A stretch of 9,869 nucleotides of DNA from Caedimonas varicaedens (GTDB taxonomy: Bacteria; Pseudomonadota; Alphaproteobacteria; Caedimonadales; Caedimonadaceae): positions 1 to 9,869 of the forward strand of contig BBVC01000076.1 of assembly GCA_001192655.1 (NCBI GenBank), written 5' to 3'. The notes beneath the pieces were generated by a model, which was not told the DNA's origin, did not search any database, and saw nothing but the letters and a program-made list of their open reading frames with translations. The position numbers and the translations under genes are program-made. Shown here piece by piece: positions 2,248-7,263 of this stretch; position 1 is the stretch's first letter; each line of letters starts with the position of its first letter.

Positions 2248-3549
2248 ATGAGACTCTCCTATTATTTTCTGCCCACGCTCAAGGAAAACCCTAGTGAAGC
2301 GCAGATTATTTCCCATCGCCTTATGCTAAGAACAGGAATGATTTTTCAGGCAAGTGCAGGAATTTATGCGTGGCTTCCCCTGGGAACGCGCGTTCTTCGA
2401 AAGATTGAACAAATTGTACGCGAAGAACAAGACCGCACAGGCGCACAAGAGATCCTCATGCCCACCATTCAATCAGCGGAATTATGGCGAGAGAGCGGCC
2501 GCTATGACGCCTATGGACTTGAGATGTTGCGCATTACCGATCGACATGATCGTGAGATGCTTTACTCGCCTACAGCTGAGGAATTGGTGACGGATATTGC
2601 TCGTAAGCACATCAAAAGTTATCGTGACCTTCCCAGGATGATGTATCAAATTCAGTGGAAATTTCGGGATGAGATTCGTCCCCGCTTTGGTGTCATGCGA
2701 GGACGCGAATTTCTCATGAAAGACTGCTACAGTTTTGACCTCAATTATGAGGGTGCCCTCGTTTCCTACCGCAAAATGCTGGAAGCTTATATCAAAACTT
2801 TTTCACGCATGGGATTGACGGCAATTCCTGTCAAGGCAGACTCAGGCGCTATTGGTGGCGATTTAAGTCAGGAATTTCAAGTACTTGCGTCAACAGGAGA
2901 AAGTCTTGTTTTTTATGATCAAGCACTGGACAGTATAGTCAAAAACAAGGGAGAAGTTGACGTTAATCGTCTGATGAGTCTTTATGCCGCCGAAGAAGGA
3001 TTGCATGATCCTCAGAAATGCCCCGTCCCTGAAGACCAGCTGAAAACAGCGCGCGGCATTGAAGTCGGGCATATTTTTTATTTTGCAACGAAATACTCCG
3101 ATGCCTTTAATGCCTGTGTCACAGGAAAAGATGGTGAGACAATCCCTTTGCATATGGGCAGCTACGGAATTGGCGTCTCAAGGCTTGTCGGTGCACTGAT
3201 TGAAGCCAACCACGATGAAGCCGGGATCATTTGGCCGGAATCGGTCGCGCCCTTTATCGTAGGCTTACTGAATTTGAAACCCGGTGACAATAAGTGTGAT
3301 ACCTTGTGTGAAGAAATCTATCATAAATTTTTAAATCAGGGGATAGAAGTCCTCTATGATGATCGCAACGAACGCCCGGGAGCAAAATTTGCAAACATGG
3401 ATCTTATTGGTATTCCCTGGCAAATTCGAGTCGGTACACGAACAATGGAGACAGGACAAATTGAGATGAAATGCCGAAGATCAGGTGAAATTCAGGAGCT
3501 TTCATTTGAATCTGCCCTGACCTCTCTCAAGAAAAGGATGGCGACTTAA
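2248..3549 (+). CDS. proS: Proline--tRNA ligase (class II), short alphaproteobacterial type without the INS editing domain
   Basis: 433 aa. The N-terminus [32 protein letters not shown] is typical of bacterial ProRS. Motif 2 is [21 protein letters not shown] and motif 3 is [15 protein letters not shown]-terminal anticodon-binding domain is present. The SD AAGGA lies upstream. Confidence 0.95.
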
Positions 3550-4796
3550 TGTCTTTCGCTTTTATTCGGAAAGTCGCTTTTCGATATCTGAAACCCAGTC
3601 GCAAAGAAGGATTTGTCTCGGTTATTGCGGGTTTTTCTTTTTTGGGAATCTTGTTGGGAGTTGCGACCCTCATTATCGTGATGTCTGTGATGAACGGTTT
3701 TCGTGAAGATCTTTTCGCTCGCATTTTGGGCTTTAATGGTCATATTGCTGTTGCAGGACTGACGCGCGAGGGATTTAAGGATTATGACGCTGCGGTTCAT
3801 AAAATTAAAAACCTGAAAGAAGTGATCAGCGCAACGCCTGTCATCGAAGCCCAATCCATGGTTATGCAACAGGGAACGGCTTTTGGTGTTCTGGTTCATG
3901 GGATTCGTCTTTCCGATCTGGAACAGCGAAAGTTGGTTTCTGACCATATCATCATGGGCTCTCTGGAAAAATTTTCTCAACCTAACGCAATTGTTATTGG
4001 TCGAAAATTAGCGGAAAAGCTTGAAGTTTTGCCGGGCGACAGCATTACGCTCGTGGCACCCGAAGGAAATCCTACGGCCTTTGGCATGGCGCCTCGCCTT
4101 CGCAAGTTTATCATTTCTGCCATTTTTGATGTGGGAATGAAAGATTATGACGGAAGCGTTGTCTTTATTCCCCTGGCATCCGCACAAAAGTTTTATCGTC
4201 TCCCAGATGCCGTCTCAGGCATTGAGATTTTTGTTCAACATCCTCAACATATTCAGGGTATGACAACCGAAATCGTCAATACCCTAGGAGAAGGCGCGCG
4301 CGTCATCGATTGGCAAAAAGCTAACGAGAAATATGCCGTTGCGGTTGAAGTGGAAAGAAATGTTATGTTTACAATTCTTACGCTTATTATTCTGGTGGCT
4401 TCTTTCAATATTGTCTCTAGCCTGATTATGCTCGTCAAAGATAAAGTCCAGGATATTGCCATCCTGCGCACTATGGGAGCAACCCAAGGCATGATTATGG
4501 CTATCTTTTTTGTGTCAGGCTCTACCATTGGTGTAACGGGCATTCTTGCGGGAAGCGCCCTTGGCATCGCGTTTGCTCTGAATATTGAAACAATCCGAAG
4601 GATTATTGAAAAGTTGTCAGGCACAAACCTCTTCAGTCCTGAAATTTACTTCCTTTCCAAACTCCCCGCCAAGATTGATTCCTATGAAGTAGCTGCTGTC
4701 ATTGTCATGGCGTTTATCCTTGTTTTTCTGGCATCTCTTTATCCATCATGGCGCGCAGCAAAGCTGGATCCCGTAGAGGCCTTGCGTTATGAATAA
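3549..4796 (+). CDS. lolE: Lipoprotein-releasing ABC transporter permease, LolC/E family (single copy, LolF-like arrangement)
   Basis: 415 aa. The N-terminus FRYLKPSRKEGFVSVIAGFSFLGILLGVATLIIVMSVMNGF is the canonical LolC/E/MacB-type start. It has a large periplasmic domain and a C-terminal FtsX-type 3-TM bundle ending in YPSWRAAKLDPVEALRYE. Its start overlaps the proS stop (TAATG at 3547-3551). Confidence 0.9.
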   Translation: MSFAFIRKVAFRYLKPSRKEGFVSVIAGFSFLGILLGVATLIIVMSVMNGFREDLFARILGFNGHIAVAGLTREGFKDYDAAVHKIKNLKEVISATPVIEAQSMVMQQGTAFGVLVHGIRLSDLEQRKLVSDHIIMGSLEKFSQPNAIVIGRKLAEKLEVLPGDSITLVAPEGNPTAFGMAPRLRKFIISAIFDVGMKDYDGSVVFIPLASAQKFYRLPDAVSGIEIFVQHPQHIQGMTTEIVNTLGEGARVIDWQKANEKYAVAVEVERNVMFTILTLIILVASFNIVSSLIMLVKDKVQDIAILRTMGATQGMIMAIFFVSGSTIGVTGILAGSALGIAFALNIETIRRIIEKLSGTNLFSPEIYFLSKLPAKIDSYEVAAVIVMAFILVFLASLYPSWRAAKLDPVEALRYE

Positions 4797-5472
4797 TACG
4801 CCGACTCTTGAACTGCGCCACCTGCAAAGGACTTTCAAACAGGGCGAGATTATTTTAAATGTTTTGAAAGATATTAACTTTAGCCTGAAAGCAGGAGAAA
4901 TTGTTGCTCTCGTTGGTCCTTCAGGCTCGGGAAAATCTACCTTGCTCCAACTGGCTGGCTTACTTGAGCGCCCTTCAAGTGGAGAGATCTTTATTCAGGG
5001 ACAACCCTGTAATCAGATGACAGATAAACAACGCACAGCCATGCGATGCCAAACCATTGGTTATGTCTATCAATTTCACCATTTATTGCCCGAATTCACA
5101 GCCCTTGAAAATATTGTTCTTCCTCAAATGATTGCAGGTATTTCGTCTATAGATGCCCAGAAAAAAGCCCAACAGCTTTTGAAAAATCTCTCTCTTGAAA
5201 ATCGTGCGACCCATCGCCCTTCCCGGCTCTCCGGTGGAGAGCAACAACGGGTGGCCATTCTGCGCGCGCTGGCCAACAATCCCGCTCTTCTCATTGCGGA
5301 TGAACCAACAGGAAATTTGGACGAAAGCACATCCCAACAAGTTTTTGATGAACTGATGAATTTGGTTAAGGGTTCCAATATGGCCGCCCTTGTGGCAACC
5401 CACAATGTTGAGTTGGCAAAAAAAATGGATCGCATTGTGACACTTCATAAAGGCACGTTGAAGGAAAATTAG
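4789..5472 (+). CDS. lolD: Lipoprotein-releasing system ATP-binding protein
   Basis: 227 aa. Walker A is GPSGSGKST, the ABC signature is LSGGEQQRVA, Walker B is LLIADEPTGNLD, and the H-loop is ATHN. It overlaps the permease gene by 8 nt, which suggests translational coupling. Confidence 0.92.
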   Translation: MNNTPTLELRHLQRTFKQGEIILNVLKDINFSLKAGEIVALVGPSGSGKSTLLQLAGLLERPSSGEIFIQGQPCNQMTDKQRTAMRCQTIGYVYQFHHLLPEFTALENIVLPQMIAGISSIDAQKKAQQLLKNLSLENRATHRPSRLSGGEQQRVAILRALANNPALLIADEPTGNLDESTSQQVFDELMNLVKGSNMAALVATHNVELAKKMDRIVTLHKGTLKEN

Positions 5473-5516
5473 AAAAAATCAAAAAAATCTATGTAAGCTC
5501 TTGATTTATTCCCATT

Positions 5517-5546
5517 TTGTCAATATAAGACTCCCACATATATAAT
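5517..5546 (+). promoter_or_regulatory. Candidate sigma70-type promoter (TTGTCA - 18 nt - TATAAT) facing the F-box ORF
   Basis: The -35-like ttgtca is at 5517-5522 and a perfect tataat is at 5541-5546. The DNA here is AT-rich, so such matches arise by chance. It would imply a ~270-nt leader. Confidence 0.25.
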
Positions 5547-5818
5547 GACATAAAGTTTGGAGCTTATTCTGTGTTTAATTTAGTTATAAAAAAAATAACA
5601 TCTTTTTCAGAAGAACTAAAATTAAATTCCTTTTATCAGAATATATTTAATCTCTATTTCAAAATCCGGGTAGGCGAACGAGCGATGAATTCCGCGCAGC
5701 GTACATAAAGTACGTGAGCAAGGGCGCCAACGACCCTCAGGTTTTGAAAGGCGAAGGTTATCCCTTCATCTGTAATCTCTGCTCTACATCTGAATTATTT
5801 GACAAGAAAGAAAAGAAT

Positions 5819-6580
5819 ATGCGTTTTATAGAAAAATTGTTTTTGATTATCATTTTGACTTTTACAATGACAAATATGTCTGCCTTGTCGTCTTATGAAG
5901 AAGAAGAAAAATACTTTTCAAAAAAGAAAAATTTCTCTGTCTCTTTCCAAATACAACCAAAAATCAAAATAGCAACTGCACAGGGAATACCTGACGATCT
6001 CTGGAAGGAAATTTTTCTTCATCTACCAAGTGATCGTTACTTATTCGCGCGACAAATTTGCAAAAGGTTTTATTTGTTATTAGCAGATAAATCATGCGTT
6101 ATAGAACACTTCAAATATCAGACAAATCGCCTCAACTTACCTCTTTTAATTCAAAATTTTAATAAATTGCCATTTTCACCTGATAACTCTCTCAGTGATA
6201 TGCACACAAATCTGCAATCTTTTGAGAACCAATATAAAGAGAAGATTGATGTGTTATGGCAAGAAACAAATATTCATTTAAAAATTCTGAGTCAAAGAAC
6301 TATTTCTTTTCAGAAAATAGACAAGGAAAACATTGATCCCCGTTTGGGGAACCAGGCTCAATATGAGGAATTTCCCCTGAATAAACTTATTAAAATAGTA
6401 AGAAGGCATTTTAATAAGTTTTCTAAAGCTTCCATGAGAGGACACGTCCTTTGCGTGAATCAGAAAAAATCAAGGTTTTATAGGGAAAATATGAATTCCA
6501 TTCGAAATTACTCTGCCGCTCATTATGGTTTTTCACTGAAGCTCAGAGATATGAATAATCTAAAATTCCCAAGGAATTAG
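5819..6580 (+). CDS. F-box domain protein with an N-terminal signal peptide or membrane anchor (eukaryote-like, candidate host-targeting effector)
   Basis: The ORF is open from 5651; the track starts it at GTG 5714. I prefer ATG 5819 (MRFIEKLFLIIILTFTMTNMSALS...), which has a purine-rich stretch upstream and a classic n/h/c signal-like N-terminus. Residues encoded at 5987-6082, IPDDLWKEIFLHLPSDRYLFARQICKRFYLLL, track the F-box consensus LPdEllleIlsrLdpkdLlrlrlVcKRWrsL. The remaining ~165 aa have no repeat family I recognise. Confidence 0.75.
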   Translation: MRFIEKLFLIIILTFTMTNMSALSSYEEEEKYFSKKKNFSVSFQIQPKIKIATAQGIPDDLWKEIFLHLPSDRYLFARQICKRFYLLLADKSCVIEHFKYQTNRLNLPLLIQNFNKLPFSPDNSLSDMHTNLQSFENQYKEKIDVLWQETNIHLKILSQRTISFQKIDKENIDPRLGNQAQYEEFPLNKLIKIVRRHFNKFSKASMRGHVLCVNQKKSRFYRENMNSIRNYSAAHYGFSLKLRDMNNLKFPRN

Positions 6581-6606
6581 AATCAAAAAAGGATACTGAA
6601 CGTTTT

Positions 6607-7263
6607 CTAACAAAGGGTTTGTCCTGTTTTTGCCCAGTCAGCCAGAAAGCTTTGCAATCCGTTGTTGGTCAAGGGATGATCATACAGTTGTCTGAAAATT
6701 TTTCCCGGCAAAGTGACAACATCTGCTCCTGCTTTGGCTGCCTGAACAACATGCAGGGGATGGCGGATTGAGGCTGCCAAAACTTCCGTCGTCAGCGAAG
6801 AATAGTTTTGGTAAATATGACAAATTTCCTCAATCAGCAAAAGTCCATCGAAGCTGATATCATCCAGACGCCCAATAAAGGGTGAGACGAAACTAGCGCC
6901 TGCTTTCGCTGCCAAAAGAGCCTGTGCCGCAGAAAAGCAAAGTGTGACGTTAACGTCGATATTTTTCTCTCTAAGCGATTTGCAGGCCTTTAATCCGTCC
7001 ATAGTCAAGGGAACTTTAATAATCACATTGGGGGCAATTTGACTAAGGACAAGACCCTCTTTCATCATCTCTTCATAATTTGTTGCAACGACTTCGGCGC
7101 TGACAGGACCGGCAACAAGACGGCAAATCTCTTCAATAACTTTTTTGATATTCTGTCCCGATTTTGCAATCAGGGAGGGATTGGTCGTCACACCATCGAT
7201 CAACCCTGTCTGGGCATATTCCCTTATTTCCTGAACATCCGCACTATCGAGAAAAATTTTCAT
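6607..7263 (-). CDS. tal: Short-form transaldolase / fructose-6-phosphate aldolase family (class I aldolase TIM barrel)
   Basis: 218 aa. [36 protein letters not shown]..., IIKVPLT (Schiff-base Lys region), SPFIGRLDD and [13 protein letters not shown] are near-identical in pattern to Bacillus/Thermotoga-type Tal/FSA. The SD GAAGGA lies 8 nt upstream of the ATG at 7263. Confidence 0.93.

Follow-up and report, generated by a model that had tools for sequence, protein, structure and literature searches.

Bacterial F-box effectors, among them AnkB, LegU1, and LicA of Legionella, VirF of Agrobacterium, the GALA proteins of Ralstonia, and those of amoeba symbionts and 'Ca. Berkiella', are presumed to be mimics of SCF adaptors, and the ones that have been characterised follow a type III or type IV route. 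As tools for manipulating the host, F-box proteins have gained acceptance in Legionella, Coxiella, and the intranuclear 'Ca. Berkiella' (PMC11338181; PMC9803151). A precedent for another delivery route is found in Holospora obtusa, whose 63-kDa protein PRP1, equipped with a putative signal peptide, is kept in the periplasm before its secretion into the macronucleus of Paramecium, and whose 89-kDa protein is periplasmic as well and released into the host (PMC9866348). Both come from the same bacterial order as the protein described here, and from a bacterium that also has a Paramecium host. However, PRP1 differs in having a DNA-binding domain and no F-box, and neither bears a sequence relationship to our protein.

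The organism of concern here, Caedimonas (formerly Caedibacter) varicaedens, is the killer symbiont known as 'kappa' in Paramecium biaurelia. It leads an obligate intracellular life in ciliates, and its draft genome consists of 142 contigs (1.69 Mb, 42.1% GC, 454 sequencing) (PMC4645214). A 2025 review of the Holosporales puts C. varicaedens in the family 'Caedimonadaceae' and describes the host-interaction molecules as essentially unknown. For this order, an atypical type VI system, unlike Dot/Icm, is reported in the same review as the main candidate apparatus, though without experimental effector data, and ubiquitin-related effectors are not mentioned there. Moreover, a search of the full-text literature found no paper that joins Caedimonas or the Holosporales with an F-box. 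Since the review names no such molecules and the search brought up no such paper, the F-box gene that we describe from C. varicaedens gives the classical Paramecium 'kappa' system a concrete candidate effector that can be put to the test.

Compared with the bacterial F-box effectors, the Caedimonas protein is alike in its eukaryote-type F-box, in belonging to an intracellular bacterium of a protist, in the low GC content of its gene, and in its strain-variable presence. In contrast, it shares no detectable homology with them outside of the F-box, it is devoid of ankyrin and LRR repeats, and its N-terminus shows a Sec-like signal instead of pointing to the type III/IV route. Bacterial F-box mimicry is itself well established, and the points of interest are this signal peptide, a rare extension to the F-box that is specific to the family, and natural strains that differ in whether they carry the gene.

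The F-box gene and its surroundings

The window, by which we mean the whole 9,869-nucleotide stretch of DNA that was analysed, encodes proteins that match GAO98660-GAO98666 of C. varicaedens by exact sequence. Its genes include an ArnT/PMT-type glycosyltransferase on the reverse strand (452-2083), proS (2248-3549), lolCE (3549-4796), lolD (4789..5472, forward strand; NCBIfam TIGR02211, 269 bits), a tal/fsa-type transaldolase (6607..7263, reverse strand; NCBIfam TIGR00875, 279 bits), and priA (7334-9379), after which the window closes on the first part of a secreted hypothetical protein. The F-box gene (5819..6580, forward strand) is flanked on the left by lolD (stop at 5470-5472) and on the right by tal (stop at 6607-6609), which is convergent with lolD. 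An earlier note on this DNA, made from the letters alone, had described a stand-alone F-box ORF between lolD and tal/priA, and its status as a single gene is borne out.

The gene comprises 253 codons plus a stop, begins with ATG, and corresponds to GAO98663.1 (Cva_01327; UniRef A0A0K8MEK6). As had been given in the earlier note, nt 5987-6082 of this ORF encode IPDDLWKEIFLHLPSDRYLFARQICKRFYLLL, which proved to be an exact match. The GAO98663.1 record is labelled 'hypothetical protein Cva_01327', while the UniRef entry is called "F-box domain-containing protein"; the F-box annotation is therefore not new, as UniRef carries the name already. In composition, the ORF (GC 32.0%, GC3 31.9%) stands apart from the flanking genes, these being 44.9% GC for lolD and tal and 46.1% for priA, with a GC3 of 40-43%. 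Such a contrast had been put at about 30% versus about 50% in the earlier note; it is real but smaller than that.

As for the start of translation, a longer 288-aa version with a GTG start (5714) was rejected as an artefact, its extra codons being inside a repeat element that is missing from L089, a contig of a diverged relative. Because L089 is without the sequence that holds the upstream GTG, and because the N-terminal 25 codons are nearly the same in the window and L089 lineages, the start codon is the ATG at 5819. Here, a Sec-type signal peptide is predicted from hydropathy and sequence shape (5819..5890, forward strand; aa 1-24, MRFIEKLFLIIILTFTMTNMSALS), and this is followed by the acidic run SYEEEE. 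The N-terminus reads MRFIEK-LFLIIILTFTMT-NMSALS and continues with SY, so as to give a charged n-region, a hydrophobic core of 12-13 residues, and an A-x-S site, with the core having the highest Kyte-Doolittle window in the whole protein. In our judgement, a shape of this kind would better fit a cleavable signal peptide than a 20-residue anchor, and thus, of the two options named in the earlier note for a Sec-type N-terminus, the signal peptide is favoured over the membrane anchor.

At the other end of the protein is a basic C-terminal tail (6329..6577, forward strand; aa 171-253, 83 residues) with a pI of 10.6, which is lineage-specific and without a recognisable domain. No homology to this tail was found outside of the two Caedimonas-type clusters, and the full-length structural model is of low confidence at this region.

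The F-box and its helical extension

The F-box domain (5987..6103, forward strand; aa 57-95) is delineated by Pfam PF00646, by sequence matches to the Skp2 F-box, and by three modelled helices. With PF00646, for which the gathering cut-off is 20.5 bits, the window protein scored 23.4 bits (E=5.3e-5, aa 57-91 on profile positions 4-38 of 43), a margin of only about 3 bits over the cut-off. Three homologues pass this threshold too, and these are P0049 (27.3 bits), P0050 (23.7 bits, with a further 26.6 bits for the F-box-like profile), and P0053 (23.5 bits). With the F-box-like profile PF12937 (cut-off 24.3 bits), the window protein gave 14.8 bits. The profile-HMM check put forward in the earlier note was consequently passed with PF00646, in the window protein and its three homologues alike, but came out as sub-threshold with PF12937 for the window protein.

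When aligned with the Skp2 F-box, IPDDLWKEIFLHLPSDRYLFARQICKRFYLLLADKS lies in register with a 36-residue Skp2 stretch. Core F-box positions are kept, including the I-P-D-x-L, the hydrophobic helix 1, the LP loop, and the CKRF/W in helix 3, although the helix-3 tryptophan is a phenylalanine in the window protein. In a search of PDB sequences, the Skp2 F-box was the best match both for the single protein and for the family profile (E=0.01 with the profile), and F-box chains accounted for nine of the 11 matches to the profile. Moreover, a HMMER profile built on the window protein together with its orthologue (75% identity) retrieved only five proteins at E<=0.001 from all 1.84 billion representatives, and ankyrin and LRR domains are absent from all five. 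These were the orthologue P0049, two metagenome proteins of bacterial context (P0050 and P0053), and two of plant type (P0051 and P0052, each with an E-value of about 2e-6). P0051 is XP_026412940 from Papaver somniferum, which has an F-box plus FBA_1/FBA_3, and P0052 is 36% identical to the window protein over 87 aa, from the F-box through into the linker.

Structural modelling gave results of uneven quality. An alignment of two sequences gave a full-length AlphaFold model too poor to use (pLDDT 37.5), while a model of aa 50-170 with a six-sequence alignment reached a pLDDT of 65 and a pTM of 0.52. In the latter, helices at 59-67, 71-77, and 82-89 follow the F-box pattern, and three more helices come after. 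With this moderate-confidence model, Foldseek placed Skp2 first (rmsd of 2.5 Å over 36 residues with 39% identity, E=2.1), and FBXO31 and Cdc4 are also on the list, though every match is non-significant (E>2). The structure check suggested in the earlier note thus yields an F-box region made up of three short helices, with Skp2 as the top match, but from a moderate-confidence model and with E-values above 2. We regard membership in the F-box family as well supported by the sequence profiles, with which the predicted fold is consistent without being proof.

Given its marginal score of 23.4 versus 20.5 bits, the sub-threshold PF12937, and the non-significant Foldseek E-values, the F-box match might be suspected of being a chance likeness in an AT-rich, helix-prone sequence. 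We consider this highly improbable, since four divergent family members (28-30% identical) each score above the PF00646 threshold. F-box proteins also make up the best non-family matches among 1.84 billion proteins and nine of the 11 from the PDB, and they align in register over the domain.

Beyond the F-box, no further Pfam or NCBIfam domain was found in the window protein, with WD40, LRR, kelch, and FBA all being absent, and this agrees with the view in the earlier note that no known substrate-binding domain follows. Instead, there is a helical extension of about 70 aa that is particular to the bacterial family (6104..6328, forward strand; aa 96-170), which is predicted to be helical and matches no Pfam family. 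It is marked by V(I/L)xHF and (D)V(x)(V/I)LW(x)E(T/V)(N/K)(I/F)H, and motifs such as HDKxV(L/I)xAHF and DV(x)(V/I)LWxE(T/V)x(I/F)H are common to P0050, P0053, and the window protein. P0050 and P0053 show 28-30% identity with the window protein, from aa 56-58 to about aa 165-169. The likeness takes in the F-box and the ~70-aa helical extension with its VLW-E-x-x-H, whereas the C-terminal regions are unlike. P0049, the orthologue in L089 (252 aa, 75% identity), has conserved the signal peptide, and P0053 (401 aa) starts with a signal-like MTIAFFFLIFILVSAVYA that runs into the acidic SGEEG. P0050 (233 aa) is without a signal peptide. In all, three of the four family clusters have a signal-peptide-like N-terminus and then acidic residues. 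P0053 adjoins a LuxR-type regulator and a signal-peptide protein, and P0050 adjoins a serine-recombinase gene, both contigs being bacterial. Word-index searches of 5.8 billion proteins, including one with the family profile, found no further members, and the family, with four clusters among some 1.8 billion representatives, is very rare.

With respect to eukaryotic proteins, plant F-box/FBA proteins have a linker after the F-box, D-x-x-V-x-EH-x-YQ, that is alike in the window protein, and homology to plant F-box proteins stretches to aa 134-136. Eukaryotic F-box proteins otherwise differ, in that the window protein is bacterial, has an N-terminal signal peptide, is only 253 aa in length, ends in a basic tail unrelated to them, and is without FBA, LRR, WD40, or kelch modules. 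The FBXW and FBXL receptors of SCF, for example, have a WD40 or LRR substrate domain, of which the window protein has neither, and it is at best 'FBXO-like' with an uncharacterised C-terminus. Outside of the F-box, its chain is modelled as helical at low confidence. A recent origin from a F-box gene of the ciliate host is unsupported, the named non-family match at E<=0.001 being from a plant (Papaver). Likewise, although P0052 has the looks of a plant F-box/FBA protein, the two marginal plant matches are too weak for a claim of plant origin.

An accessory segment between lolD and tal

The F-box gene is contained in an accessory segment of 1124 nt (5478..6601; 32.4% GC), together with a promoter-like site and a hairpin repeat. 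This segment is missing in five metagenome contigs (L003-L007, one of which is 88 kb), even though their Tal is identical to that of the window. Here, the stops of lolD and tal are 10 nt apart (TAG-AAAAAGCTTT-CTA), and on either side the match to the window is 97.6-99.1%, reaching as far as 5477 on the left and resuming at 6604 on the right. The segment is carried by L088 and L001 of the same species, and by L089 and L002 of the diverged relative (two Logan assemblies), in which the gene for P0049 is found between the same lolD and tal. L088, a 102-kb JGI contig, encodes an identical protein and has 98.98% identity across the whole window. The metagenome JGI 3300045973 includes an empty-site contig (L005) and a separate gene-bearing contig of 943 nt (L001), which suggests that both alleles are together in it.

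To place these alleles in relation to each other, flank SNPs were compared at 1059 positions. Differences numbered nine between the window and L088, 0-7 among the empty-site contigs themselves, 12-17 between the gene-bearing and empty-site groups, and 50-57 between L089 and all others, and this sets L089 as the outgroup to both groups. As derived flank SNPs are found on both haplotypes, the polarity of the indel is read only from this gene-bearing outgroup, and the most parsimonious history is that the gene was there ancestrally and that the L003-type lineage lost it by deletion. Alternatively, the gene may have been transferred by homologous recombination. Between 4500 and 6873, the window and L088 have just three differing sites, versus about 1% elsewhere, and the gene allele thus belongs to, and moves with, a local haplotype block of some 2.4 kb that the two share.

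The segment borders show neither terminal inverted repeats nor a target-site duplication, and there is no tRNA gene around the segment and no recombinase in the window, and an Rfam scan of the segment gave zero matches. The borders are those of a plain indel, with the hallmarks of a mobile element or genomic island absent. A recent foreign insertion, which the earlier note had entertained, is not what we find, as a relative that has diverged by ~5% has the gene at lolD-tal. Rather, because this relative has the gene and strains diverged by only ~1% lack it, we view it as an accessory gene of older date that only some strains have kept. It has probably been lost in some strains, and, being cleanly missing from them, it is dispensable.

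The same locus was sought in other bacteria by means of Tal. At 80 other recovered loci (alphaproteobacterial or related, Tal 59-69% identical), tal-priA adjacency was common, whereas lolD-tal adjacency and an F-box ORF were each found at none of the 80, and among the GTDB species genomes scanned with Tal the closest was 69% identical. The earlier note had named orthologues common at this locus in free-living relatives as a finding that would speak against its reading, and none came to light at these loci; accordingly, lolD-tal is a lineage-specific junction, and the gene is not one that free-living relatives conserve.

The ORF has the properties of a protein-coding gene. Its reading frame is unbroken in the window, L088, L001, L089, and L002, and the ORF is intact in three lineages, with zero frameshifts at 14-18% nucleotide divergence between the orthologues. 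Nei-Gojobori estimates for the window versus L089 gave a dN of 0.124 and a dS of 0.448 for the F-box ORF (dN/dS 0.28), compared with 0.012 and 0.301 for tal (dN/dS 0.04) and 0 and 0.160 for lolD (dN/dS 0). The dN/dS is well below 1 in all four analysed segments except aa 1-25, which has too few substitutions. From the value of 0.28, we conclude that the ORF is protein-coding and under purifying selection, and at the protein level it is evolving about ten times faster than its neighbours.

Upstream of the gene, a consensus scan identified a sigma-70-like promoter candidate (5517..5546, forward strand), with TTGTCA, an 18-nt spacer, and TATAAT (11/12 matches). Both of the promoter-like hexamers are unchanged in L089, and the upstream 160 nt are ~92% identical to L089, compared with ~84% for the ORF. 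Between the promoter-like site and the ATG is an imperfect-hairpin repeat of the ERIC family (5661..5766, forward strand; about 105 nt, 53% GC), which is the source of the GTG at 5714 and folds into a long hairpin. It has a second copy 7.7 kb off (L088:17701-17815). By direct alignment, the repeat is 77% identical to an E. coli ERIC copy over 103 columns (z=7.7, single orientation), and for the Caedimonas-type copies the identity to the E. coli ERIC element is 70-77% (z 7.6-10.7, also in a single orientation). On the strength of this identity, we take the repeat to be an ERIC-family element beyond the enterobacteria. The likeness is one of direct alignment only, as blastn of the repeat against E. 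coli gave zero matches, and no Rfam family matched it. As a separate observation, the 27-nt apex of the repeat has exact matches in 14 metagenome contigs with GC contents of 42-61%, in which all copies are intergenic, form 110-130-nt hairpins, have varied housekeeping neighbours, and differ in stem sequence by organism.

A possible role in the host and its alternatives

We consider it somewhat probable that this is a functional accessory gene whose product is an exported F-box protein serving as an adaptor for the host SCF. In such a mechanism, the gene would be transcribed from its own conserved sigma-70-like promoter, and the cleavable Sec signal peptide would take the protein past the inner membrane. 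Passage out of the periplasm and into the host compartment could then proceed by type II secretion, vesicles, or lysis. Once there, the F-box would dock on Paramecium Skp1, with the helical extension and the basic tail as a new part by which a host SCF ubiquitin ligase would recruit substrates. For the window protein, signal cleavage and export, entry into the host, docking on Skp1, and the targeting of substrates are all inferred steps, and the delivery step is the weak link. Also counting against this mechanism are the thin margin of the profile score, the non-significant structural matches, the want of a signal in P0050, and the near-identical strains that manage without the gene. By default, a Sec signal leads to the periplasm, and we know of no F-box partner in that compartment.

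It is the same signal that lends some credit to a different explanation, according to which the product is a periplasmic or envelope protein whose F-box-like helices serve a bacterial purpose, such as contact with an envelope protein, and never meet the host Skp1. A Sec-type N-terminus is shared by three of the four clusters in the family and is the only delivery signal visible in the protein sequence; furthermore, the gene adjoins the lipoprotein-sorting lolCD, and the homologue on contig L090 adjoins a signal-peptide protein and a LuxR-type regulator. However, the proximity to lolD is that of a lineage-specific junction in convergent orientation and without an operon. The likeness to eukaryotic F-box proteins spans 80-87 residues, inclusive of the plant-type linker, and the family is confined to a handful of contigs, with none at the locus in free-living relatives. 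Moreover, the related Holospora has Sec-exported proteins that arrive in the nucleus of its host. With this in mind, a purely bacterial role seems rather unlikely to us. Also to be weighed is whether the gene, once acquired from a eukaryote, now survives as a decaying or functionless relic, tolerated in some strains and deleted in others. Its absence from five near-identical contigs would suit a remnant, as would the low GC, a dN about ten times that of tal, the repeat element inserted in the gene leader, and the scarcity of homologues anywhere searched. Yet a gene in decay would hardly be expected to show a dN/dS of 0.28, well below 1, an unbroken frame in the window, L088, L001, L089, and L002, and a conserved promoter-like site, and we judge this to be a quite unlikely origin for what is seen.

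Going further than a functional host SCF adaptor, the proteins may constitute a small, undescribed family of Sec-exported F-box proteins that pass from the periplasm of protist endosymbionts to the host without type III/IV secretion, and in which the helical module is a new substrate receptor on the host SCF; this we put forward as a tentative and more doubtful proposal. Only if the route of delivery or the substrate module turned out to be novel would the advance be more than incremental. Nonetheless, how a protein that pairs a signal peptide with an F-box would be delivered to the host is a tractable question, and natural strains with and without the gene exist for comparison. Were the proposal true, the presence or absence of the gene in near-identical Caedimonas strains may shape their host range or their effect on the host.

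An ERIC-family hairpin repeat in the leader of the F-box gene

The F-box gene carries within its 5' leader an inserted hairpin repeat of the ERIC family (window 5661-5766, + strand), a type of element about 105-130 nt in length, and further copies occur in the 102-kb conspecific contig L088 (L088:17701-17815) and in the metagenome contigs L094, L101, and L105. When an E. coli ERIC copy was compared with these Caedimonas-type copies, it gave 70-77% identity with z values of 7.6-10.7, and in a single orientation only. Descriptions of ERIC elements usually concern enterobacteria and vibrios; the organism carrying the present repeat is an alphaproteobacterial symbiont of ciliates.

Here, the 27-nt apex of the hairpin (GCGCAGCGTACATAAAGTACGTGAGCA) has an exact match in 14 metagenome contigs (L092-L105) with a GC content of 42-61%, and in all of them the copies are intergenic, adjoining varied housekeeping genes (gnd, nrdE/F, purH/purD, pyk, ftsY/gpmI, rpmB, and rpsD). 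Every one folds as a hairpin of 110-130 nt, and while the apex is invariant across these very different genomes, the stem sequences vary from organism to organism, with outer stems that were not alignable by MAFFT/RNAalifold. Moreover, no Rfam family covers the apex hairpin of these contigs.

Neighboring genes

Downstream of priA, the gene at window 9463-9869 corresponds to L088:13783-14625, which encodes a protein of 280 aa that has a signal peptide and a lipase/alpha-beta-hydrolase-like motif, GHSRG. The window copy has lost 10 nt at ~9712, and the resulting frameshift leaves a 119-aa ORF, this being either a real disruption or a 454-sequencing or assembly artefact close to the contig end. 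Within priA itself, the match of RMST_1, an Rfam eukaryotic lncRNA region, to window 7758-7840 (- strand) is sub-threshold, at 25.6 bits against a gathering score of 40, and is almost certainly due to chance. On the other side of the F-box gene, gene calling in the near-identical ENA GROS21-1 contigs L004 and L006 breaks up or truncates lolCE and lolD (ORFs of 386+33 aa, 236+197 aa, and 151+71 aa), which may reflect assembly errors or Lol-system pseudogenisation in some populations.

Haplotype block and segment border

At the left border of the accessory segment (window 5473-5490), a 9-nt tandem duplication (AAAAAATC AAAAAAATC) is present in the window and L088, and is absent from L089, a relative ~5% diverged in the flanks. 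Over window 4500-6873 (~2.4 kb), we counted 3 differing sites relative to L088, against ~1% outside, and the empty-site contigs have 13 differences within 4500-5477 alone. This stretch is a local haplotype block surrounding the accessory gene, which suggests recombination between co-occurring strains.
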